Shown: positions 978 to 55,968 of the stretch, piece after piece
Numbering within the stretch: position 1 is the stretch's first letter
Layout: every line of letters begins with the position of its first letter
NCBI GenBank assembly: GCA_016195685.1
Contig: JACPZE010000026.1
Coordinates: 1-60,063 of the forward strand
Direction: 5' to 3'
Source of the DNA: Candidatus Gottesmanbacteria bacterium
GTDB lineage: Bacteria > Patescibacteriota > Microgenomatia > 2-02-FULL-39-11
DNA: 60,063 nucleotides
Program-made: the position numbers and the translations under genes
Notes under the pieces: model-generated
Told to the model about the DNA's origin: nothing
Database searches by the model: none
What the model saw: the letters and a program-made list of their open reading frames with translations, nothing else

Positions 978-2342
978 ATGGATAATTTATTACCGAAAAT
1001 TAAATTAGGAAAATACCAGGAAGAGAAACTAGATTTATCTATTTCTGCTTTTGAGGCATTCAAAAGACTTTATCCTTATTTTAAGGATATATTTCTTTTG
1101 GAGTCACTAGGGGAGGAGGGGAAATTTAACAGATTTTCCTATATAGGATTTTCTCCGAAACTTATCATTTCGGCCAAAAATAAGGAATTGTTTATAAACG
1201 GAAAACTGATAAGTATTGAAAACCCGTACTTCTTTCTTTCAAAGTTAATGGAAAAATTCAAAAGCGCTGGGAATGGTTACTGTGGCGGCTTGGTAGGATT
1301 TTTCACTCATGAAGCTACGAAATACTTTGAACTTGCATTTACCGGGTACGAAAATTACGATTTTCCGGATTTCTTATGCGGATTTTTCTTGGATGGATTT
1401 CGTTTTGATAAAAAAACTAAGGAGGCCTTTTATTTCCATCACGGTGAATCAAGGCTTAAAAAGGTTTATCATCTTTTTCATAAGGAAGGCAAATTAGACA
1501 GCTTCCAGTTTGAGAAGCTGCAAAGTGCTAAAACAGAAAGTGACCATAAAGATATGGTTTTGAAGGCAAAAGAACATATAAAAAAGGGAGATATTTTTCA
1601 GGTTGTTTTAGCACTTAAGACTTTCTATAAAATTTCCGGGGACATAAGAAGGTTTTATGCGGTCCTTCGGCAAGTAAATCCAGCTCCGTACACTTTTTAT
1701 ATTAAATTTGGGGAAAGGATAGTAATTTCGGCTAGTCCTGAACTTCTTATCGGGGTAAAGGGAGATAAAATTGAGCATTTTGGAACACTGGCCGGAACAA
1801 TCAGACGTGGGGGAAACGATTTAGAGGATAATTTGCTGGCAGAGAAACTTTTAGGAGATGAGAAAGAGAAAGCAGAGCATATGATGTTGGTGGATTTAGC
1901 TCGAAACGATTTGGGTAGAATTTGTGAATTTGGAAGCGTCACGGTGGAAAAGCTATCAATAGTGAAAAAATACAGCCATGTACAGCATCTATATTCAGAA
2001 GTCAGGGGGAAACTCAAAAAGGGCGAGAATGCCTTTTCGGCTTTGGCTGCCTGTTTTCCGGCTGGTACTTTAACTGGTGCTCCCAAGATTGAGGCGATGA
2101 AAATAATAAAAAATCTGGAAAAAGAAGCAAGAGGTCCTTATGGTGGGGTGGGCGGATATTTTTCGCTAAATGGTGAGGCCATGCAGGCTATCACTATTCG
2201 TTCTATTTTTATTAATGGTAAGACTGCCTACACACAGACAGGTAGCGGAATTGTAGCTGATTCTGAACCAGAAAAAGAATATCAGGAGATTATAAATAAA
2301 CAAAAGGCAATTGAGGAGGCATTAAAACTCGCTAGTATATGA
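978..2342 (+). CDS. trpE: anthranilate synthase component I
   Basis: Chorismate-binding motifs GDIFQVVL, SPELL, EHMMLVDLARNDL, FPAGTLTGAPK; first gene of the trp operon. Confidence 0.92.
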   Translation: MDNLLPKIKLGKYQEEKLDLSISAFEAFKRLYPYFKDIFLLESLGEEGKFNRFSYIGFSPKLIISAKNKELFINGKLISIENPYFFLSKLMEKFKSAGNGYCGGLVGFFTHEATKYFELAFTGYENYDFPDFLCGFFLDGFRFDKKTKEAFYFHHGESRLKKVYHLFHKEGKLDSFQFEKLQSAKTESDHKDMVLKAKEHIKKGDIFQVVLALKTFYKISGDIRRFYAVLRQVNPAPYTFYIKFGERIVISASPELLIGVKGDKIEHFGTLAGTIRRGGNDLEDNLLAEKLLGDEKEKAEHMMLVDLARNDLGRICEFGSVTVEKLSIVKKYSHVQHLYSEVRGKLKKGENAFSALAACFPAGTLTGAPKIEAMKIIKNLEKEARGPYGGVGGYFSLNGEAMQAITIRSIFINGKTAYTQTGSGIVADSEPEKEYQEIINKQKAIEEALKLASI

Positions 2343-3924: not shown

Positions 3925-4661
3925 AAAACAAACTTACACAGATACTGGACAATAAAATGAAAGAAGTTTCCCAGAAAAAGAAAAAAAGAGATTTCTTAGG
4001 GGCAATAACAAATCCCAAAATGGGAGATATTTCAATAATTGCTGAGATTAAACTTGCATCTCCGACTGCCGGTAAGTTAGGAGAAGAAAAAGATATAGAA
4101 AAACAGGTATTAATGTATGAAAAAAGTTATGCTGATGGGATTTCCGTAGTAGTCGACAAAAAATATTTTGACGGAGAGTTGGAATTTATCAAACAAATTA
4201 AAAATACAGTTTCTCTTCCGCTCCTAGCCAAGGATTTTATCATCGATCCTTATCAGATTTATGAAGCAAAACTTTACGGAGCTGACGCAATATTATTGAT
4301 AGCAAAGATATTGACCAAAAAGAAACTCCAGAAATTTGTCAAACATTGTTTTGATGCTGGGTTGGAACCGGTAGTTGAAGTACAGAATAAAAAAGAGTTG
4401 GAAAAAGTGTTGAATATTGGTACTAGGATTATTGCTGTGAACGCACGAGGTCTGTCAACTTTTAAGGTAGACGTAGACGGAGCATGTCAGCTGATCAAAA
4501 GTATTCCAAAAGAGTTTGTAAGTTTGGGTTTTTCAGGAGTCTTGGGGATAAATGAGGTAGAACAATATAAGAAAGCCGGTGCAAAAGGAATATTGGTGGG
4601 AATAACCCTAATGAAATCAAAAAATCCCGGAAAAGTTATAAAGGAGTTTAAAGGATTATGA
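3921..4661 (+). CDS. trpC: indole-3-glycerol phosphate synthase
   Basis: IIAEIKLASPT, LLAKDFIIDPYQI, GADAILLI, VNARGL. Confidence 0.93.
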   Translation: MKNKLTQILDNKMKEVSQKKKKRDFLGAITNPKMGDISIIAEIKLASPTAGKLGEEKDIEKQVLMYEKSYADGISVVVDKKYFDGELEFIKQIKNTVSLPLLAKDFIIDPYQIYEAKLYGADAILLIAKILTKKKLQKFVKHCFDAGLEPVVEVQNKKELEKVLNIGTRIIAVNARGLSTFKVDVDGACQLIKSIPKEFVSLGFSGVLGINEVEQYKKAGAKGILVGITLMKSKNPGKVIKEFKGL

Positions 4662-5278
4662 AAGTAAAAGTAAAAATTTGTGGTGTCAAGACATTGGAAG
4701 CTGCACAGGCTAGTATTAACGCGGGAGCTGACTTTTTGGGATTTAATTTTGTGCCGACTTCAAAACGTTTAATGAGTAATGGAATCGCCAAGCAAATTAT
4801 CGATGAGTTGCCAAAAACAATAGCAAAAGTTGGAGTATTTATGGATGCGGATATTTTGGAAATCCATAAATTAATTAATTACTTGAAACTTGATTATGTT
4901 CAGTTGCATGGCAATGAATCACCTAAATACGTTTCATCGGTGCAGGGAGCTGGAATAATAAAAACTATTTCATTACCTATTGAGTTTGATGTCGAAAAAA
5001 CAAAACAGAAAATGAAAAAATATCAAGTTGATTATTTTTTATTAGACAGAGAAGAACAGGGAAGGGGAAAAATGTTAGATTTAGATATGGTAAAGGAGTT
5101 AACTTCAGCCTTCCCCATCATTTTAGCTGGAGGATTAACAGTTGAAAATGTTTCTCAAACGGTTAAATTAGCTCATCCTCAAGTCGTAGATGTGGCCGGC
5201 GGAGTAGAGGCAAATGGGGCAAAAGATAAAGAAAGAATCACCGAATTTATAAAAAACGCTAAACTTTATGATATTTGA
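4658..5278 (+). CDS. trpF: phosphoribosylanthranilate isomerase
   Basis: [32 protein letters not shown]. Confidence 0.94.
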
Positions 5279-6518
5279 TTTTCATACCAAATACGATGGT
5301 GACGGTAAAGGACATTTCGGAGAATACGGTGGCAGATTTGCTCCGGAAATGCTTATACCTGCCTTGGAAGAATTAGAGGCAGCATATAAAAATGCTAAAA
5401 AAGATAAAAAATTTGAGCAGGAATTTTTAGAATTGCTTCATAGTTTCGCCGGCAGACCTACTCCTTTAACTTTTGCCAAAAATCTCACAAAGAAATTAAA
5501 CGGCGCCAAAATTTACTTCAAAAACGAAGGACTAAATATAACAGGCGCCCATAAAATTACACACTGTTTAGGTCAGGCGCTACTGGCAAAAAAAATGGAT
5601 AAAAAGAGGATAATCGCAGAAACTGGGGCGGGTCAGCACGGAGTAGCTGCCGCCACAGTGGCTGCTAAATTTGGGTTTTCCTGCACTGTATATATGGGGG
5701 AAGTGGATGTTGCCCGACAAAGACCAAACGTTTTCTGGATGCAGCAGCTGGGGGCGGAAGTGATACCGGTGAAATTTGGCAGCAGGACTCTTAAAGACGC
5801 AGTCAATGCAGCATTGAAAGATTGGATAACGAATGTAGAGAGTACACATTATTTACTCGGTTCTACTGTAGGCCCTCATCCGTTTCCAACCATCAATCGT
5901 GATTTTCAATCAGTGGTCGGAATGGAAGTTAAAGAACAGATTAAGAAATCAGAAGGAAGGCTGCCGGATTATCTGATAGCCTGTGTGGGAGGAGGTAGTA
6001 ACGCAATAGGACTTTTTTACAGATTTTTGAATGATGGAAAAGTGAAAATGATAGGTGTTGAAGCAGGAGGTAGAGGTGTAGAAAAGATAGGAGATCATGC
6101 CACCAGATTTTACGGCGGAGAAACAGGAGTGGTAGAGGGGTATAAATCCGTATTTTTGCAGGATGAGTATGGCAATTTAGCACTAACTCACAGTGTCTCG
6201 GCAGGGTTGGATTATCCAGGAATAGGTCCGCAACTGGCATATCTGAAAGAGCAAGGCAGGGCCGATTTTACATATGCAACGGATAAAGAAGTACTGGATG
6301 CGTTTAAACTATTAGCAAAAACTGAAGGAATAATTTGCGCTTTAGAATCAGCTCACGCAGTGGCGGGAGCGATAAAACTTGTACCTACACTTTCTAAAGA
6401 CAAGATAGTTGTAGTAAATCTTTCAGGAAGAGGGGATAAAGATATTTTCATAGTGGCCGAGGCACTAAAAGATAAAGAGTGGAGAGATTTTATAAGGAGT
6501 AAAGTGTATGAATATTAA
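5268..6518 (+). CDS. trpB: tryptophan synthase beta chain
   Basis: GAHKI (PLP lysine), [37 protein letters not shown]. Confidence 0.97.
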
Positions 6519-6522
6519 TTTA

Positions 6523-6677
6523 CGGGTCTTGCATATTATTAAAAATATAAATTTTTCAGACTCTGCAGCTCGCGCTCGGTATATCCCTTACCTTCTGTCC
6601 ATGTACCTTATTATTCTCACGCTCAATTGCAGAGATCTTCAAAATTTCTATTTTTAAACATGATCTCGCGTCACCCG
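6523..6677. repeat. nested palindromic element: family A arms enclosing a family B element
   Basis: Arms cgggtcttg...ctcgcgtcacccg match copies at 39642, 43540 and 55562; inner 6545-6647 matches 26745-26853. Confidence 0.85.
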
Positions 6678-6694
6678 CTATTAAAATAAATGTT

Positions 6695-7495
6695 ATGAAT
6701 GCTATAGAAAAAAAACTAATTCAATTAAAAAAAGAAAATAGATTAGGTCTTATAGCTCATGCAGTTTTGGGTTATCCGAATATGGAGAAAAGTTTAGAGA
6801 TTATAAATAGTTTAATTTCAAATGGCAGCGATTTTTTGGAATTGCAAATACCATTTTCTGATCCGGTAGCGGATGGGGAGACAATTATGAAAGCTTGCGA
6901 AGTAGCCTTGAAAAGCGGAATGAATACAGATGAGGCTTTTGAACTTGTTGGTAATTTAAGAAGGGCTGTTAACGTACCTATATTACTTATGGCTTATTAC
7001 AATACGATTTTTCGATACGGAATAAAGAGATTTTGCAAAAAAGCAAAAGATTTAAGAGTTTCTGGGATAATTGTTCCGGATATTCCACCTGAGGAAGAGA
7101 TAGCAGAGAAATTTATAACTACTTCCTTAGAATATGATATTTATCCGATCCGTGTAGTTTCACCCTCAAGTAGTATTAATAGGTTGGAAATCAATGCACG
7201 ATTTGCCAGAGGATTTGTATATTGTATAAGTCATTTTGGGGTTACTGGAACAAAGACAGTAGTTGACGATCGGCTTACAAGATATTTGCAAAGAGTTAAA
7301 CAAATTATGAAATTACCCGTTGCAGTAGGATTTGGACTTTCAAAAGCAGAGCAGATAGAAGCATTAAAAGGTGTTGCAGATATTGTAATCGTGGGAAGCG
7401 CAATTATCAAAAATTATAATGAGGGAGGAATAAAGCAAGTAAGCTCGTTTATAAAAAGTTTAAAAGAAAGTACAATGGGGAAAGGATATATATGA
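6695..7495 (+). CDS. trpA: tryptophan synthase alpha chain
   Basis: LELQIPFSDPVADGETI, LLMAYYN, IVPDIPPEE, VGFGLS, VGSAII. Confidence 0.96.
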   Translation: MNAIEKKLIQLKKENRLGLIAHAVLGYPNMEKSLEIINSLISNGSDFLELQIPFSDPVADGETIMKACEVALKSGMNTDEAFELVGNLRRAVNVPILLMAYYNTIFRYGIKRFCKKAKDLRVSGIIVPDIPPEEEIAEKFITTSLEYDIYPIRVVSPSSSINRLEINARFARGFVYCISHFGVTGTKTVVDDRLTRYLQRVKQIMKLPVAVGFGLSKAEQIEALKGVADIVIVGSAIIKNYNEGGIKQVSSFIKSLKESTMGKGYI

Positions 7496-8193
7496 GAGGA
7501 TTAGGAACAATTTTCAACGTTATTACTGTACTAATTGGTGGCAGCCTGGGACTTCTTATCGGTTCACGATTTAATAAAGACTTAAATAAAGCAGTGATAG
7601 GGGTAAATGGATTCGTATCAATGGTTATTGGTATTCAGATGGCGTTTACCTCAAAGAATATTTTGATTGTTTTAATAAGTTTGGCATTGGGAGTAATTAT
7701 CGGTGAAATTATTGATATTGAAGGGCGACTGCAGAGGTTTAGTCAACATATGGAAGATAAATTCGGCCGCGGTGAGGAAGGAAAATTTGCCAAAGGATTT
7801 CTGACTACAAGTATCCTTTTTTGTGTGGGGCCACTCACAATACTGGGTTCTTTACAGGACGGACTTACGGGTGATATTAAACTACTTGCAACCAAATCGA
7901 TCCTTGATGGTTTTTCTTCTATAGTATTTGCTTCTGCATTTGGAGTAGGAGTGATGTTTACCATAATAACAATTATAGTCGTGCAGGGGAGTCTTACTCT
8001 TCTTGCTGGTACATTGAGTGGAATACTGACACAAGCAGTAATTGCCGAACTGACCGGAGTTGGTGGTATCATGGTAATATCAATCGGTTTGGGACTGTTA
8101 GAGATAAAAAAATACAAGACTGCCAACATGTTACCGGCACTTTTGATTGCGCCGATAATAGTTATGTTATTAACTTATTTTAAATTTATATGA
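7492..8193 (+). CDS. DUF554-family multi-pass membrane protein
   Basis: GTIFNVITVLIGGSLG start, LFCVGPLTILGSLQDGL, KSILDGFSS; mostly hydrophobic helices. Confidence 0.85.
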   Translation: MRGLGTIFNVITVLIGGSLGLLIGSRFNKDLNKAVIGVNGFVSMVIGIQMAFTSKNILIVLISLALGVIIGEIIDIEGRLQRFSQHMEDKFGRGEEGKFAKGFLTTSILFCVGPLTILGSLQDGLTGDIKLLATKSILDGFSSIVFASAFGVGVMFTIITIIVVQGSLTLLAGTLSGILTQAVIAELTGVGGIMVISIGLGLLEIKKYKTANMLPALLIAPIIVMLLTYFKFI

Positions 8194-9704
8194 CAGATCC
8201 AAAAGTAAAAAAATACAGTGAGGAGTTGAAAAAGTTGGGCATTGAACACGAAATTTTGAAACATCCACAACTGGTTTCAGTTGAGGCGGTACAAAAATAT
8301 CTAGGATATGGTTTGGAAGATGCTGGAGCAACGCTCGTAATTAAGGTAGATGATAAGTTTATTGCCATAATTAGAAGGGGAGATACGAAATTAGATAATG
8401 AAAGAGTAAAAAAATATCTGGGTGTTGCCAATCTTCGAATGGCAAATGAAGAAGAATTTACAAAACTTACCGGAGTTCCAAGCGGTGCGGCTAGCGTCTA
8501 TATTCCCAGTTTGCCGACATATATAGACAAAAAAATCTTTGAAAAAGAATACATAAACGCAGGATCAGGAAGTCTTCTCTATACTTTCCGATACAAGACT
8601 AGTGATTTGAAAAAAATTCCAGGTATCAAAGTAGTTGATTTCACATCGATAGAATCAGAAAAGAAGAGTTCTTTAATTGATATAAAGGGAAAAAGGATTC
8701 TCTCTGGCATAACACCAAGTGGTGATGGCACTTTGCATATCGGTAATTACTTGGGAGCAGTAAAGCAGTTTATTGAATTTGCGAAAAATGGTGATTGTTA
8801 TCTTATGGTTGCGGATCTGCATGCGCTTACAACCATACAAAATAAAGCACAACTACAAAAGAATACGGAAACGTTGATCTTAAACGAACTTGCTTTATTA
8901 GGAAACCTTACAAATATCGTCTTTTTTAGACAATCTGATGTGCCGATGCACGCGGAGTTGACTTGGATCTTAAATAACGTTACTCCTCTGGGACTTTTAC
9001 GTCGCGCTCATGCATACAAAGATAAACTTTCAAAGGACGTGATGGAAGATGAAATAAACTTGGGGCTTTTTAATTACCCGATTCTTATGGCATCAGATAT
9101 ACTACTTTATAAACCAGATTTTGTACCTGTCGGGCGCGATCAGAAACAGCATATAGAAATCTGTCGGGATATTGCGGGAAGATTAAATAAGACATATAAA
9201 TCTGACGTTTTAAAACTTCCGAAACCATATATCCCGGAAGATGTAGCAGTAGTCATGGGTACTGATGGAAAGAGAAAAATGAGTAAATCTTTGGGGAATA
9301 TCATAAGTATATTTGATGATGAAATTGTAATAAAAAAACAAGTGATGAGTACTTATACGGATCCTACAAGAATTCATTCGAATGATCTGGGACATATAGA
9401 AGGGAATATGGTATTTGCATACCTTGATTTCTTTGGTGAAAAAAACAAAGTTTCAGAACTGAAAGATTTATACAAAGAGGGTAAAGTAGCGGATGTGGAA
9501 GTGAAAAATTATTTATTTGAGTCGTTGATGAAAACATTTAAAGATGCGCGAGTCCGATATCAGGAGCTTAAAAATAACCCACAAAAAGTTACAAAGATAT
9601 TATCGAATGGAGCAGATAGAGCTCGAGAGGTAGCTGGAAAAACCATGATGGAGGTGCGGGATGCGATAGGGTTGACCAATAATTACTCGTTCTTCAAATA
9701 TTAA
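8190..9704 (+). CDS. trpS: tryptophanyl-tRNA synthetase with N-terminal YbaK/ProX-like domain
   Basis: HIGN and KMSKS motifs, VPVGRDQKQH. The first ~150 aa resemble YbaK/INS-type editing domains (LRMANEEEF, TGVPSGA, NAGSGS). Confidence 0.92.
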   Translation: MTDPKVKKYSEELKKLGIEHEILKHPQLVSVEAVQKYLGYGLEDAGATLVIKVDDKFIAIIRRGDTKLDNERVKKYLGVANLRMANEEEFTKLTGVPSGAASVYIPSLPTYIDKKIFEKEYINAGSGSLLYTFRYKTSDLKKIPGIKVVDFTSIESEKKSSLIDIKGKRILSGITPSGDGTLHIGNYLGAVKQFIEFAKNGDCYLMVADLHALTTIQNKAQLQKNTETLILNELALLGNLTNIVFFRQSDVPMHAELTWILNNVTPLGLLRRAHAYKDKLSKDVMEDEINLGLFNYPILMASDILLYKPDFVPVGRDQKQHIEICRDIAGRLNKTYKSDVLKLPKPYIPEDVAVVMGTDGKRKMSKSLGNIISIFDDEIVIKKQVMSTYTDPTRIHSNDLGHIEGNMVFAYLDFFGEKNKVSELKDLYKEGKVADVEVKNYLFESLMKTFKDARVRYQELKNNPQKVTKILSNGADRAREVAGKTMMEVRDAIGLTNNYSFFKY

Positions 9705-13009: not shown

Positions 13010-14134
13010 ATGAAAGTTGCTATTGTCCACGACTACATTAAAGAATATGGAGGGGCGGAGAGGGTATTGGAAGTTCTACACGAAATATGGCCAGAGGCAC
13101 CTGTCTATACCACTGTTTATCTTCCGCAATTCTTAGGTCCTCATATGGAAAGATTTAAAGGCTGGGATATAAGGACTTCCTGGATGCAAAATATCCCATA
13201 TGTCGGGAAACTGATTAGTCCGATTAGACTTGTTACTCCTTGGTATTTTGACAATATAGATTTCCGTCAGTTTGATGTAGTGATAGTTTCTGCCACAGGT
13301 GCTTATTTCCCAAATTTGATTGTAAGAGACCCTGATACTTTACATATCTGCTATTGCCATACTCCCCCTCGTTATCTTTATGGTTATCCGACTGCCAGAA
13401 ACTGGCAAAATAGTGTAATCGGTAGGATTGCAGCAGGATTTTTCAATCACTCACTTCGTCAATGGGATTTTGTTTCTTATCAAAGGCCGGATTATATTAT
13501 TGCTAATTCCTATGAAGTGAAGAGAAGAATCGAAAAGTTTTACAGAAGAGACGCAATGGTAATTTATCCGCCGGTTAATGCTGAGTCAAAAATCAAAAAT
13601 CAAAAATCAAAAGTCCCAGGCAAAAGTAAAAATTATTTCTTGGCTGGAGGTAGATTGGCGAGGGCAAAAAGGATTGATTTAGCTATTGAAGTATGTAATA
13701 GACTCAAGTTTCCACTGAAGGTTTTTGGCCGGGGTTTTGCTGACTATGATAGTGAGCTTAGGAGAATTGCCGGTCCGACGATAGAATTTTTAGGAGAAGT
13801 AAGTGAGCAAGAACTTTCTAAGTTATACGCTGGTGCAACAGCACTTATTTACCCGTCTGAACAAGAGGATTTTGGTATCATGCCGGTTGAGGCGATGACT
13901 TTTGGTACTCCTGTGATCGCGTTAAACCAAGGAGGAGTGAAGGAAACAGTGATAGATGGTAAAACCGGTGTGTTTTTTGATGAACCAACGGTTAAAAGCC
14001 TAATGGAAGCTATGAAACGATTCAACAAACAAATAATCATGAGTGAAAACTGTATAGAACAAGCGAAAAAATTCAGTAAAGAGAGATTCAAGAAAGAAAT
14101 TACTAATTTTGTTAATTCGAAAATTAAATTATAA
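13010..14134 (+). CDS. GT4 glycosyltransferase
   Basis: KVAIVHDY..GGAERVL, EDFGIMPVEAM. Confidence 0.9.
   Translation: MKVAIVHDYIKEYGGAERVLEVLHEIWPEAPVYTTVYLPQFLGPHMERFKGWDIRTSWMQNIPYVGKLISPIRLVTPWYFDNIDFRQFDVVIVSATGAYFPNLIVRDPDTLHICYCHTPPRYLYGYPTARNWQNSVIGRIAAGFFNHSLRQWDFVSYQRPDYIIANSYEVKRRIEKFYRRDAMVIYPPVNAESKIKNQKSKVPGKSKNYFLAGGRLARAKRIDLAIEVCNRLKFPLKVFGRGFADYDSELRRIAGPTIEFLGEVSEQELSKLYAGATALIYPSEQEDFGIMPVEAMTFGTPVIALNQGGVKETVIDGKTGVFFDEPTVKSLMEAMKRFNKQIIMSENCIEQAKKFSKERFKKEITNFVNSKIKL
13586..13613 (+). repeat. heptamer tandem array (tcaaaaa x3 + tcaaaag) inside the GT4 CDS
   Basis: Read directly; encodes SKIKNQKSK. Confidence 0.85.
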
Positions 14135-14164
14135 TTTACTGATCCCCGAAGTTAAAATTAATGT

Positions 14165-15025: not shown

Positions 15026-15772
15026 ATGGATATATCCCAACCTATTGTCCAGACTTATGACAAGTCCTTCGGATTATCAAAGGATAAACCTCTTGTAATC
15101 TCCCTAGGCGGATCATTGGTTATTCCCAATAGCGGGATGGATACCAAATTTTTGGCACAATTCAATAATTTCATAAGACAAAAAATCGCCCAAGGATGGC
15201 GATTTTTTATAGTAGTTGGCGGAGGAGCGACTGCCCGCCATTATATAGAAGAAGCGCAGAAAATTGCAGGTCATATAACCGACTGGGATTTGGACTTTTT
15301 AGGTATCCATGCAACTCGTCTGAACGCGCATCTTATGAGAACTATCTTTCAGGATGTTGCACATCCTAGGATCATAGCCAATTACGAAAAAAAGATTACC
15401 CAACTGAAACAACCTTTGGTCATTGCAGCGGGATGGAAACCCGGTTTTTCTACAGACTATGATGCTGTTATATTGGCAAGAGATTACGGTGCTCAGGCTG
15501 TAATCAATATGTCCAATATCACCCAGGTTTTTGAAAAAGACCCCAAAAAATTTCCGGACGCCAGGCCTCTACACAATCTGACGTGGGAAGAATTTGAAAA
15601 GATTGTAGGAAATAAATGGAGTCCGGGGAGCAATCTCCCTTTTGATCCTGTAGCTACAAAGTTAGCTAAGGAACTGAAAATATCAGTATACGTGGTGGGC
15701 AGTGATTTGAATAATTTAGAAAATGTGATTGCAGGAAAAATTTTTCTCGGCACCGTTATTTCTCCTTCATGA
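15026..15772 (+). CDS. pyrH: UMP kinase (archaeal-type)
   Basis: VISLGGSL, VGGGATARHY, PGFSTDYDA, DPKKFPDA, PFDPVA. Confidence 0.88.
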   Translation: MDISQPIVQTYDKSFGLSKDKPLVISLGGSLVIPNSGMDTKFLAQFNNFIRQKIAQGWRFFIVVGGGATARHYIEEAQKIAGHITDWDLDFLGIHATRLNAHLMRTIFQDVAHPRIIANYEKKITQLKQPLVIAAGWKPGFSTDYDAVILARDYGAQAVINMSNITQVFEKDPKKFPDARPLHNLTWEEFEKIVGNKWSPGSNLPFDPVATKLAKELKISVYVVGSDLNNLENVIAGKIFLGTVISPS

Positions 15773-26725: not shown

Positions 26726-26744
26726 TCTATTTATAAATAACAGA

Positions 26745-26853
26745 ATATAAATTTTTCAGACTCTGCAGCTTCCTTCGTCGCTTTTGCTCCTCAGGACAAG
26801 CGCGTTTACCCTGAGTTTTACGAAGGGCTCAATTGCAAAGGTCTTCAAAATTT
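26745..26853. repeat. family B palindromic element carrying an inverted pair of family C REP-like units
   Basis: Left arm 26/26 and right arm 25/27 identical to 6545-6647; the cargo differs. Confidence 0.88.
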
Positions 26854-26894
26854 ATATTTCTTGTTAAAATGAGCGCGAATCATTCATAGATTTT

Positions 26895-39262: not shown

Positions 39263-41632
39263 CTAAACTTTCGATCTTTTCAGAAGTAGGGAATTAGATA
39301 CTACTGATATTGAAGAAGTAGCCATCGCAAGAGAAGCAAACATAGGATTTAAAAGTATTCCCCAGATAGGATAAAGGATTCCCATTGCTATAGGAATAAG
39401 TACTACATTATAAGCAAAAGCCCAAAATAGATTGAATTTAATAGTTCGCATAGTTTTTTTGGAAAGATTTATCGCTATAGCTACGGATTTCAATTCTTTA
39501 TTTATAAGTGTAATATCCGCCGCCTCGATAGCTACATCAGTCCCGCTACCCATGGCAATTCCTACATCGGCGGAAGCAAGTGCAGGTGCATCATTTATAC
39601 CGTCACCGACAAAAGCAATTACATTTTTAGATTTTAATTTACGGGTCCTGCCGCTCAGGTATCCCAAGCGACGATACATCTCCGCTTGGGACCCCTCCTT
39701 CGCGTCACCCGTAGTTAAAATTATTGTTTTATCTCTTAAATTCTGCACGATTTTCTCTTTCTCCTGAGGTAAAACTTCAGCAAAAACCTTATCTTTATCT
39801 ATTCCTGCAAGTTTTCCTATAGCTTGGGCTGTTTGAGTATTGTCTCCTGTGACCATATAAACATCGATTTTCATCTTCTTGAGTGTATTTACGGCCTCTC
39901 TTGCATCGGGTTTAAGAGTATCGGCTATAGCAAAGAGAGCAACATTTTTCTTATTGATAGCTACATAGGCTAAAGTTTTTCCTTCTTTAGCCCACAGATT
40001 TGCTTTTTTATCCAGTTCACTGCAACGCATGACTTTTTCCTTTTCCATAAGCTTCTTATTACCCACAAGAATATTGACTCCATCTGCCCTTCCTTGTATT
40101 CCATGTCCTTCAATTGCATAAACTTTATCAGTTTTTAATTCCCTGGCTTTATTTTTTAAATATTCAATGATAGCAAAAGATAATGAGTGCTCTGAGTGTT
40201 TTTCCAGAGAATAGATTAATGAAGAAATATAATCGTGAATTGATAAATTATTAGGGATATTAATACCTAAGTCAGTCCCAACATCATCAAGCTTTTCCAT
40301 GAAAGAGAAATCAGTGACTTTGGGTTTTCCGGATGTCAAAGTACCGGTTTTGTCAAAAATAACAGCGTTTATCTTATGTGCAAGTTCCAGACTTTCAGCA
40401 TCTTTAATAAGTATTCCATGTTGGGCACCTAATCCTGTTCCTACCATAATTGCAGTAGGGGTAGCCAGACCCATCGCACAGGGACAGGCAATGATCAAAA
40501 CTGCAATAGCATTAAGCATGGCAAATAGAAAAACAGGTGTTGGACCAAAAATGTACCATACAACGAAAGTAAAAATGGCCAGCATAATCACAATTGGTAC
40601 AAAGTAAGAAGATATTATATCTGCAATTCGTTGTATTGGCGCTTTACTTCCTTGGGCTTCTTGGACGAGCTTAATTATCTGGGCGAGCATGGTGTCGCTT
40701 CCGATTTTAGTTGCCTTGAAAGTAAAAGAGCCTGTTTTATTGATAGTTGCCCCAATTACGTTATCTTCTTTACCTTTCTCAACGGGAATACTTTCTCCGG
40801 TAACCATGGATTCATCGATCGATGATTGGCCTTCAATAATAATTCCGTCAACTGGAATTTTTTCTCCGGGACGAACGCGGATCAAATCTCCGATCATAAC
40901 TTCTTCTATCGGAATATCAATTTCTTTACCGTTTCGAATTACTCGAGCTGTTTTTGCCTGAAGGCCTATCAATTTCTTAATCGCTTCAGATGTTCCGGCT
41001 TTTGCCCGCGCTTCTAAATATCGGCCCAAGAGTATTAGAGAGATTATGATGGTGGCTACGTCGAAGTAGGGAAGGGGTTCTATACCGGTATTTTTTATAA
41101 ACTGTGGTAAAAAAGTTACAAATACCGAGTATCCATAGGCTACAGTAGTACCGAAGGCAACCAATGTATCCATGTTGGCAGTTCGATGACGTAGGGCTGG
41201 AATTGTAGCGCGGTAAAAGATGGAGCCGATCCAAAACTGGACAGGAGTAGCCAAAAATAATTGGAAGTAGAAATTTTTTAGGATAAATGGTGCAGTATCC
41301 ATGAGTCCCGGGAAGCTGCCCCAAAGTATAAGTCCTCCAATAATCAGGCTGAAAATTACTTTATCCCGTAATTCAATTAATTCCTTTTTCTTTTCTAACT
41401 CTTCCGAAGACTTATTATTTTCTTCAGCTAGTATCGCTTTATAACCGACATTCACAACTGCCGTTTCCAGATCAATATCTTTGACTTTTTGAGGATCGAT
41501 AGTAACTGTAGCTTTCTCGGTAGCTAGATTGACGTTGGCATCTGTGACACCAGCTACTCTCCCTAAGGATTTCTCCAATACTCTAACGCACGATGCGCAA
41601 TGCATGCCTTTGATGGTAAAAATTTTTTTCAC
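39263..41632 (-). CDS. copA: P1B-type copper-translocating ATPase carrying a repeat-derived insertion
   Basis: GMHCASC, TGES, CPC, DKTGT, GDGIND, YN; ~30-aa insert before NVIAFVGDG. Confidence 0.95.
39642..39711. repeat. family A palindromic element in frame inside copA
   Basis: 62/70 identical to the intergenic copy at 43540-43609. Confidence 0.92.
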
Positions 41633-43515: not shown

Positions 43516-43539
43516 TATTTAAGCTCGCATTATGATTTA

Positions 43540-43609
43540 CGGGTCCTGCCGCTCGGGTATCCCATACTACGATACATCTCCGTCTGGGATCCCTCCCTCG
43601 CGTCACCCG
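43540..43609. repeat. family A palindromic element (intergenic), followed by a degenerate heptamer run at 43627-43680
   Basis: 62/70 identical to the copA copy. Confidence 0.92.
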
Positions 43610-43682
43610 TTGTTAAAACTAATGTTTGAAAATTAAGCATTGTAAATTCATTAAAAATTGAAAATTTAAAATTAAAAATTGT

Positions 43683-54903: not shown

Positions 54904-55968
54904 ATGACATATGATCTTATAATTATCGGTGCTGGTCCCGCAGGGTTAACGGCTTCTATCTACGCTTCTTGTTATCACCTTTTACATATAGTTATTGGTA
55001 GGGAATTAGGAGGACAACTTCAATTGGCTCCAGATATCTTAAATTATCCGGGTTTTGAAAAAATTTCCGGCAAAGAATTGACGGAAAGAATAATAAATCA
55101 ATTAAAAAAACGTGGAGGTGAATTAACTATTGGTTCTGTAGTTAAAATAAAAAGTAATAATGGTTTATTTGAAATAGAAATACAGGAGGGGAATAAATAC
55201 CAAGCAAAAGCCATTATTTTGGCTACAGGTACCGAGAGAAGGAAGCTAAACGTGCCTGGAGAAGGGGAATATACCTCTAAAGGAGTCCATTACTGCGCTA
55301 CGTGTGAAAAGTTTGACTATGAAGGGAAAGTTTGTGGAGTAGTAGGAGGGGCAAATAGTGCCGTACAGGCTGCTGTTGAACTCTCCCAAGCAGCAAGTAA
55401 GGTATACATTATATATAGGGGTACACAGCTTCGGGGAGATGCGGTATGGCTAGAACAGGTGGAGAAACACCCAAATATCGAGGCTATTTATAATACTGTT
55501 GTGACTGAGATTATAGGAGATGGAGAGAAGGTGACGGGAGTAAAAATAAAATCTACATCTGCGGGTCCTGCCGCTCGCGTATCCCAAGGTGACGCTTCAA
55601 GTCGCTCGCCTCAGGCGAGCTCTCCCAACGGTAGCGCATCACTTGGGAGTTCCTCGCTCGCGTCACCCACTGATAACTTGTTACAACTTGATAAGTTATT
55701 TATAGAAATAGGTGGAGTACCGGGGACAGCATTAGTGATACCTTTGGGAGTAGAAGTGGATCCGGGGGGATTTATAATAACTGATCAGAAATTAGCCACG
55801 AATGTGCCAGGAATTTTTGCAGCAGGAGACTTAGTGACTTTTGGTTATAATCTCGAGCAAATCTCATCTGCGGTAGGACTGGGAGCCCGTTCTGCTGCTT
55901 CTGCTTTTGCCTATCTTAAAGGCGACAAAGCCCCAACTGTCTGGGGAGGGAGTCAGATAAAAAGATAA
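54904..55968 (+). CDS. second thioredoxin reductase-like flavoprotein carrying a repeat-derived insertion
   Basis: GAGPAG, CATCE, GGANSA, FAAGD; Ser/Ala/Pro-rich insert SAGPAARVSQGD...SLASP. Confidence 0.9.
   Translation: MTYDLIIIGAGPAGLTASIYASCYHLLHIVIGRELGGQLQLAPDILNYPGFEKISGKELTERIINQLKKRGGELTIGSVVKIKSNNGLFEIEIQEGNKYQAKAIILATGTERRKLNVPGEGEYTSKGVHYCATCEKFDYEGKVCGVVGGANSAVQAAVELSQAASKVYIIYRGTQLRGDAVWLEQVEKHPNIEAIYNTVVTEIIGDGEKVTGVKIKSTSAGPAARVSQGDASSRSPQASSPNGSASLGSSSLASPTDNLLQLDKLFIEIGGVPGTALVIPLGVEVDPGGFIITDQKLATNVPGIFAAGDLVTFGYNLEQISSAVGLGARSAASAFAYLKGDKAPTVWGGSQIKR
55562..55668. repeat. family A element with expanded cargo, in frame inside the second trxB
   Basis: Same arms as 39642 and 43540; 57-nt centre that contains a gctcgc-ctcag-gcgagc hairpin. 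Confidence 0.9.

Follow-up and report, generated by a model that had tools for sequence, protein, structure and literature searches.

The trpB-trpA junction and its insert

On contig JACPZE010000026.1 of the Candidatus Gottesmanbacteria assembly GCA_016195685.1, the genes trpB and trpA are separated by a 176-nt spacer composed of two repeat families, namely an outer hairpin, termed A here, and an inner palindrome, B, that lies in the A loop. All positions are those of the 60,063-nt stretch of this contig that was analysed, numbered on its forward strand (the window; G+C ~37%). The upstream gene trpB (5268-6518, + strand; 416 aa, open reading frame (ORF) list and Pfam PALP) stops at TAA 6516-6518 and is followed by trpA (6695-7495, + strand; 266 aa, ORF list and Pfam Trp_syntA). 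The closest TrpA matches are proteins of Gottesmanbacteria, Roizmanbacteria and 'Patescibacteria group' bacteria, and near-identical contigs are held by four groundwater metagenome runs. The region from 6512 or 6514 to 6693 or 6694 is read here as a composite mobile insert, and it is very probable, judging from the sequence of the junction and of its relatives, that this composite insertion of a repeat element split a formerly overlapping trpB-trpA junction.

The heptamer TATGAAT stands on both sides of the insert, at 6507-6513 and 6694-6700, with a start-to-start distance of 187 nt. The left copy codes for Tyr-Glu of the TrpB tail and contains a stranded ATG at 6508. In the right copy, positions 6695-6700 are trpA codons 1-2 (Met-Asn), and ATGAAY is conserved there in all relatives. 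Upstream of the left copy, AAGGAG (6494-6499, + strand) is part of A-AGG-AGT, which specifies Arg-Ser in the TrpB tail; the ATG that follows 8 nt on overlaps the end of trpB and opens an orphan ORF of 49 codons (6508-6657, + strand), which traverses the element, stops 37 nt ahead of the trpA ATG and gave no family in a Pfam scan of its 49 aa. No purine-rich motif was found in the 25 nt ahead of the trpA ATG. These features had been reported in a preliminary description of this DNA, which listed the two heptamers 187 nt apart, the AAGGAG with its ATG and a frame of about 49 codons, and a working trpA start in the second heptamer with no obvious Shine-Dalgarno (SD) motif, and each of them was confirmed.

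From left to right, and throughout on the + strand, the insert begins with the AT-rich left end of A (6512-6523), ATATTAATTTAC, for which conservation over 22 copies gives the family consensus ATTATAATTTAC, and continues with the left arm (6524-6532), GGGTCTTGC, a truncated version of GGGTCCTGCCGCTCnnGTATCCC. An AT-rich segment of the A loop (6533-6541, ATATTATTA) leads to the B palindrome (6542-6655), which has terminal inverted repeats of ~24 nt and a strict two-copy match over 6544-6653; beyond B come the other AT-rich loop segment (6656-6664, AAACATGAT), the right arm (6665-6676, CTCGCGTCACCC) and the AT-rich right end (6677-6694, GCTATTAAAATAAATGTT; consensus GTWGTTAAAATTAAKGT). The A copy at the trp junction is short-armed with B in its loop, and is bounded by the ends ATATTAATTTAC and GCTATTAAAATAAATGT(T) and the arms GGGTCTTGC and CTCGCGTCACCC. 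Its outermost bases can be assigned in two ways: the AT at 6512-6513 could belong to the element or to an invariant 5' flank, and the last T of the right end (6694) may be a flank base. The 12-mer ATATTAATTTAC recurs at the left end of an A copy in another contig (L040), beside an unrelated flank. The TTAAA on either side of B (6539-6543 and 6654-6658) was considered as a 5-nt duplication and rejected, since other B copies end in AG...CT and have no flanking repeat; the pair is accounted for by the palindromic, A/T-rich ends.

Continuity across 6543-6583 is provided by the window assembly alone, as the Logan contigs of four independent runs (X1-X4) stop inside the B repeat and none spans the whole insert. 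The same samples contain three or more further B-like copies, as well as one additional composite of A with B located elsewhere. When contigs of the four groundwater runs were searched for strain variants without the insert at 90% and 80% likeness, no insert-skipping join was found, only other repeat copies. The A/B repeats fragment the assemblies of this organism, and they cause annotation errors in the form of split or extended ORFs and assembly breaks.

The insertion has changed both genes at their shared border. The final one or two sense codons of trpB and its stop now lie within the inserted element, so that the gene ends two codons into it, at the TAA that the AT-rich left end carries. 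A TAA at this position also closes the GT4 glycosyltransferase gene at another, collapsed A copy in the window, as well as the upstream genes in two other contigs (L025 and L004). The trpA ATG has been kept directly 3' of the right end. The genes survive because a stop codon comes with the element and the start of the downstream gene is left untouched; overlap coupling, however, has been lost, since trpA now begins 176 nt from the trpB stop. A promoter and terminator scan of 6300-6900 gave nothing on the + strand, and none of the RNA runs contains the trp locus.

The junction in related genomes

The contigs of seven TrpA relatives, 64-76% identical by BLAST (76% for the best match besides the window's own copy), were compared at this junction. 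In the insert-free relatives L036, L037, L038 and L039, trpB and trpA overlap by 4-14 nt at TATGAAY. The junction of L037 reads ...AGTAAAGTATGAATACA, with the TrpB tail KV* and an ATGA overlap; those of L036 (...AATGAATATGAATAAG), L038 (...AATGATTATGAATAGT) and L039 (...AATAAATATGAACGCTATTGA) give the TrpB tails NEYE*, NDYE* and NKYERY*, respectively. It is because four insert-free relatives overlap at exactly this sequence that the insert can be said to have split a coupled junction. In a neighbour-joining tree of TrpA, for which no support values were computed, the window stands, weakly, beside L038 and L002, and L037 is not part of the group in which the window and the remaining junction relatives fall.

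Six relatives lack the window's insert, and two of these carry unrelated inserts at the same junction: L002 has one of 159 nt (1787-1945) with inverted ends ATGAGC...GCTCAT, and L003 has one of 75 nt (3926-4000) made of small hairpins. An AAAAT around the L003 insert was examined as a 5-nt duplication and not upheld, given that keeping both copies yields the tail KNKIKYERY*, one codon shorter than KNKINKYERY* of L039. Both unrelated inserts hold the small hairpin GTCATyCTGr...yCAGrATC, which is probably yet another repeat family. Three different inserts at one trpB-trpA junction in three related lineages suggest that this junction is a tolerated site that has been invaded three times independently. 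More generally, coupled operon junctions, together with the surface loops of housekeeping enzymes described below, are invaded time and again by small hairpin repeats in these tiny genomes.

The comparison also bears on the AAGGAG ahead of the stranded ATG, which the preliminary description had taken for an orphaned pair of SD and start codon. The ATG is indeed stranded and opens the 49-codon ORF, but the four insert-free relatives, in which an SD would still be functional, have AAAAAG or AAAAAA at the position of AAGGAG, and AAGGAG occurs only in the window and in L002, both of which carry inserts. A stranded SD is therefore not supported by the aligned sequences, and the motif is probably not a ribosome-binding site. 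A trpA gene without SD is normal here, because an SD-like motif precedes only 14 of the 54 likely genes of the window. In several genes (for example at 15026, 54904, 57995, 48095 and 58567) TATAAT lies 6-10 nt before the ATG, a placement that hints at leaderless or very short-leader mRNAs.

Origin of the flanking heptamers

Four candidate ancestral joins were aligned with the relatives. When 6514-6694 is removed and both copies are kept, the join has 0 gap columns against L036, L038 and L039, and the distance from a shared Lys codon to the trpA ATG is 10 nt, the same as in these three genomes. All three already hold tandem hexamers without any insert (ATGAAT-ATGAAT in L036, ATGATT-ATGAAT in L038 and ATAAAT-ATGAAC in L039). 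A join that retains a single copy, in contrast, has a 6-nt gap against the same three relatives, and L037 is the only one that it fits, at the cost of a 2-nt gap. Both heptamers thus match junction sequence in relatives, and since they align with it the repeat needs no chance explanation. The left TATGAAT could accordingly be read as the counterpart of the first tandem hexamer in L036, L038 and L039, or else as the left copy of a target duplication.

Taken as a whole, our results tilt slightly towards tandem hexamers that were inherited and an insertion between them without duplication. An ancestor with two tandem hexamers at the overlap (ATGAAT-ATGAAT, cf. L036) and x-Glu-Tyr-Glu in the trpB frame would have had the empty site ...GTGTATGAATATGAATGCT, and the element would have landed between the hexamers, just 3' of an AT, in a target that was not duplicated. 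The insertion is located in the short segment in which a dispensable trpB tail and the trpA start overlap. The flanking TATGAAT pair would then be largely inherited, with the seventh matching base, T6694, being the last base of the element. The preliminary description had proposed an insertion at the coupled trpA start with a 7-bp duplication; the insertion stands, given the four overlapping relatives, and the 7-bp duplication is doubtful, given the gapless two-copy join. It had also named the retention of both ATGAAT copies in relatives as an observation that would speak against its proposal, and this is partly what is seen, with an exact tandem in L036, variant hexamers in L038 and L039 and the single-copy fit in L037.

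A true target-site duplication is possible but on balance rather unlikely. One ancestral TATGAAT at the overlap, with the empty site ...AAAGTGTATGAATGCT, would have been cut in a staggered manner that duplicated 4-7 nt; by the family-defined ends of A the duplicated bases would be ATGA or TATGA, and seven at most. Several observations favour such a duplication or weigh against inherited hexamers. The two heptamers are identical in 7/7 positions and abut the element ends, as expected for a recent duplication. The single-copy join has the top pairwise score, 40.5 against L037, compared with 38 against L038 for the join without duplication, and the window and L037 have AGTAAAGT in common. The join without duplication needs an extinct trpB stop (TAT-TGA, cf. 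L039), for which trpA codon 4, now ATA, would once have been ATT; with the same ATT the single-copy join takes the architecture of L039, in which the trpB stop TAT-TGA lies inside trpA. At the A copy in the CopA gene of the same genome, 4/5 flank bases match in the same geometry. If flank offsets of 0-2 are allowed, flank matches among the A copies are weakly enriched (p ~0.05-0.06, trp copy included), with at least 4/5 matches in 6/23 copies against 9% under the null, and flank repeats of at least 6 nt occur in 4/21 copies against a null of 4.8%. The near-invariant AT at -12/-11, if it were element and not flank, could shift all joins. Lastly, the ancestral state is reconstructed and not seen, the closest insert-free relative being 74% identical in TrpA.

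Against a duplication stand the three relatives that already have two hexamers and leave the single-copy join gapped by 6 nt, and also the edges of the repeat itself. Positions 6512-6513 fall on the AT found ahead of TATAATTTAC in 20-21/22 copies (by position, -12 and -11 are conserved in 21 and 20 of 22 copies), and T6694 matches the terminal T of all three same-genome A copies. Seven is the ceiling for any duplication because those two bases coincide with the left-edge AT of the family; by the family alignment, no more than 4-5 bases of the heptamer can be counted as unambiguous flank. The 7-nt footprint that had been proposed for these elements was not recovered either, and a lack of such repeats at other copies was the second observation that the preliminary description had named as speaking against its proposal. 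No consistent 5- or 7-nt flanking repeat was found across 23 non-redundant A copies, and a test against shuffled pairings on 21 copies, with the geometry fixed by the conservation over 22 copies, gave p = 0.26 (0.57 when the trp copy is left out); the seventeen copies from other genomes showed nothing above the null in this geometry. Loose ends gave no usable flanks for other same-genome copies, as their consensus merges several copies whose left and right sides cannot be paired.

Two occupied sites elsewhere in the window allow the same comparison. At the first, a collapsed 'shell' of A (14128-14164, + strand; 37 nt, both AT-rich ends intact around a core of 12 nt) lies between the GT4 glycosyltransferase gene, whose stop TAA is inside the left end, and fpg, whose ATG directly follows. 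An orthologous full A copy occupies this site in L042 (1398-1500) and L043, and L044 lacks an insert, its genes overlapping by 8 nt (1480-1510). A join at -10/+17 without duplication restores the GCC-TGA stop used by L044, and no duplication is seen at this site, although two genomes have conserved, coding flanks there. The Fpg of L042 is only 60% identical, as is that of L044. This shared occupancy of the GT4-fpg site may reflect an old insert with conserved ends or the repeated use of one site.

The second site is the A copy at 39631-39728 (+ strand), which lies in frame within the gene of the P-type ATPase CopA (39263-41632, minus strand), antisense to it. If a 96-nt insert is taken out and no duplication is assumed, the loop keeps 11 residues, like that of the homologues P0124 and P0127, whereas removal at the trp-site spacing (core + 34 nt = 102 nt) leaves 9 residues against the 10-11 of several insert-free homologues among 40 aligned. 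For the CopA insert a length of core + 28 to 31 nt fits, compared with core + 34 nt for the repeat spacing at the trp site. At GT4-fpg and in CopA alike, the insert-free forms are matched better when nothing is taken to have been duplicated than by a join that assumes a flanking duplication of the trp size.

It is improbable, though to be weighed beside inherited hexamers, that the element inserted without duplication but with other boundaries or in another ancestor. The element could, for example, extend over -12..+18 in an ancestor with GTG-TAT-GAA-TGA, an ATGA-ATGA tandem and the TrpB tail KVYE*, or it could have been integrated by a microhomology-mediated route without transposase, with its terminal AT (left) and T (right) coinciding with the target. 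Removing 6512-6694 does leave a clean TrpB tail YE* and an ATGA stop/start overlap like that of L037, and the recurrence of ATATTAATTTAC beside the unrelated L040 flank agrees with such a left boundary. Nevertheless, aligning this join opens a gap of 2 nt with L036, L038 and L039 and one of 6 nt with L037, and a left bound at -12 makes for a poor GT4-fpg reconstruction, with a read-through of 9 codons.

The most remote of the explanations is a coincidental repeat, or an ancestral spacer that was deleted between the repeats in the relatives, and either is very hard to credit. The DNA has a high AT content and a low complexity, and TATGAAT is common in it, at an ordinary frequency (15 sites against 19 expected in the window, both strands). 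However, when left flanks were paired with the right flanks of other copies, an exact repeat of at least 7 nt close to the element ends arose in 1.4% and one of at least 6 nt in 4.8% of these mismatched pairings, so a pure coincidence is unlikely; moreover, both heptamers are homologous to the junctions of relatives. The spacer, for its part, consists of two dispersed families and is missing from six relatives, L002 and L003 with their unrelated inserts included. In any case, where the target is a short tandem repeat in its own right, a clean flanking repeat at a single copy does not prove that the target was duplicated.

Families A and B, their kin and the genes downstream

The window holds five A copies and two B copies in its 60 kb. 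Besides the trp, GT4-fpg and CopA copies, A is found in an intergenic position at 43529-43626 (+ strand), upstream of a trxB-like gene, and as a member of another subfamily at 55558-55670 (+ strand), with a 106-nt core and different ends, in frame and in sense within a second trxB-like gene (54904-55968). The second B copy (26742-26861, + strand) is intergenic and outside any A element, and a stand-alone homologue of B occurs in L040. All five A copies in the window lie on the + strand regardless of the direction of the host gene, and almost the entire window shows a positive GC skew. The uniform orientation may reflect a strand-specific insertion bias, for which five copies are too small a sample.

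In proteins, the A element adds a peptide segment. The insert in CopA amounts to ~32 aa just before the GDGINDAP motif and is missing from most of the 40 aligned homologues, and the one in TrxB to ~38 aa; more in-frame copies were found in L013, L014, L015 and L027/L035. The core length is 2 mod 3 in 5/5 measured in-frame copies (window CopA, L015, L027, L035 and L040). In the CopA alignment, 9/40 homologues from the candidate phyla radiation (CPR) carry other, unrelated inserts in the same loop before GDGINDAP. The L040 contig has an A-type element (1887-1987, minus strand of the locus) at the identical CopA codon position (P0121, CopA 60% identical), with diverged arms and a different middle compared with 39631-39728, and other similarly distant homologues have no element.

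Across its copies, A combines near-constant borders with a free interior. The left arm has the consensus GGGTCCTGCCGCTCnnGTATCCC and the right arm CCCTCn'n'TCGCGTCACCC; in the subfamily of the trp site, ATTATAATTTAC forms the left and GTWGTTAAAATTAAKGT the right AT-rich end, and all three same-genome copies terminate in TGTT. The middle part varies freely, with cores that range from 66 to 179 nt in the full copies gathered, plus the collapsed shell of 12 nt, and elements measure 97-182 nt. Inverted repeats within A comprise TAC-GGGT/ACCC-GTA and ATTTTAA/TTAAAAT, and the final 5-6 nt of the right end are unpaired with the left. Simple A copies fold as one long hairpin (z = -6.3 and -5.5). Two variable positions of the stem covary (AG/CT, GA/TC, GC/GC, GG/CC and AA/TT; the pairs are GC, AU and CG), with 99.5% of cells paired and 0/500 shuffles reaching the observed score, and in an arm alignment of 22 copies the compensatory stem positions neighbour invariant unpaired stretches. 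Such a pattern of compensatory and invariant positions would be expected for a hairpin that is recognised as a structure. For B, with its clear terminal inverted repeats of ~24 nt, the copy at 26742 folds with z = -4.1, and no flanking repeat was found at three copies.

The A core was found in 11 GTDB contigs and 21 metagenome contigs, and the metagenome-assembled genomes (MAGs) that carry it are labelled Gottesmanbacteria, Saccharibacteria and 'Gammaproteobacteria'. The last label belongs to L006, L010, L012, L005 and L013, 'uncultured Gammaproteobacteria' MAGs of ~41% G+C with longer inverted ends, GAGTTTCGCG...CGCGAAACTC; these occurrences could be due either to a wrong label or to a family that crosses phyla. 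In four runs, read depth over the A core is ~10-25x that of single-copy flanks. A known structured RNA was rejected, as Rfam matched nothing over the window at the gathering threshold, nor anything in the two element regions tested at E values up to 5. A Pfam scan of the window ORFs (60 kb) found no transposase or RAYT, and no Y1 (HUH) transposase was seen within the window, to which the search was confined. No description of the A or B family was found in the literature, also when the core sequence was searched as a text string.

[quoted passage not shown] MITEs are further defined by a target duplication of fixed length and by a partner insertion sequence (IS) with matching ends. Unlike them, A shows no consistent duplication, its outermost ends are not mutual inverted copies, and the window ORFs contain no transposase domain; on the copies compared, a MITE membership of A would fail on the fixed target duplication. 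Structured hairpins, the lack of a target duplication, a short fixed flank motif and a strand bias are characteristic of REP/BIME elements with RAYT and of elements derived from IS200/IS605. The covarying stem, the near-invariant AT, the missing consistent duplication and the five + strand copies give A a similar look, whereas A forms one long hairpin from both ends and not a separate hairpin at each end. Its likeness to REP/RAYT or IS200/IS605 elements is a resemblance, and membership would be at most putative.

Known MITEs such as Correia/NEMIS, ERIC, RUP and BOX can be nested, can be operon-borne and co-transcribed, and can affect the expression of neighbouring genes (PMC10969869). In the same review, Rickettsia palindromic elements (RPEs) are described as small palindromes that occur between genes and in frame inside housekeeping genes. 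Like RPEs, A is short (~100-150 bp), palindromic, non-coding, scattered over a small genome, and either intergenic or in frame (CopA and TrxB), where it adds a peptide segment, and in analogy the behaviour of A and B appears closest to that of RPEs. The host, however, is a groundwater bacterium of the Patescibacteria/Microgenomates-like kind (CPR), so that A is treated here as an analogue of RPEs; A also differs in its near-invariant arms, covarying stem pairs and an exchangeable apical module, which is once another palindrome. From its sequence features, A looks like a new MITE/RPE-like family.

It is conceivable, although we regard it as doubtful in its full extent, that A is a structure-constrained hairpin element spread across Patescibacteria (Gottesmanbacteria and Saccharibacteria), which inserts strand-specifically 3' of an AT without duplication, carries exchangeable apical modules including palindromes, and occupies the same sites in genomes at 60% protein identity. 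If this were true, A could insert via a single-strand route, like that of REP/RAYT or IS200/IS605 elements, or via an undescribed one, and the same-site copies with a near-identical core could point to selection for a hairpin function (e.g., at gene junctions) or to site-specific homing. A family with invariant arms, a compensatory stem and exchangeable tips that is common to CPR phyla is a usable marker of mobile-element biology in uncultured bacteria.

Downstream of the trp genes, at 7492-9704, the window encodes a DUF554 membrane protein and then a fusion protein in which an aminoacyl-tRNA editing domain of the YbaK type stands N-terminal to a tryptophanyl-tRNA synthetase. The relatives L003 and L039 have this fusion as well.

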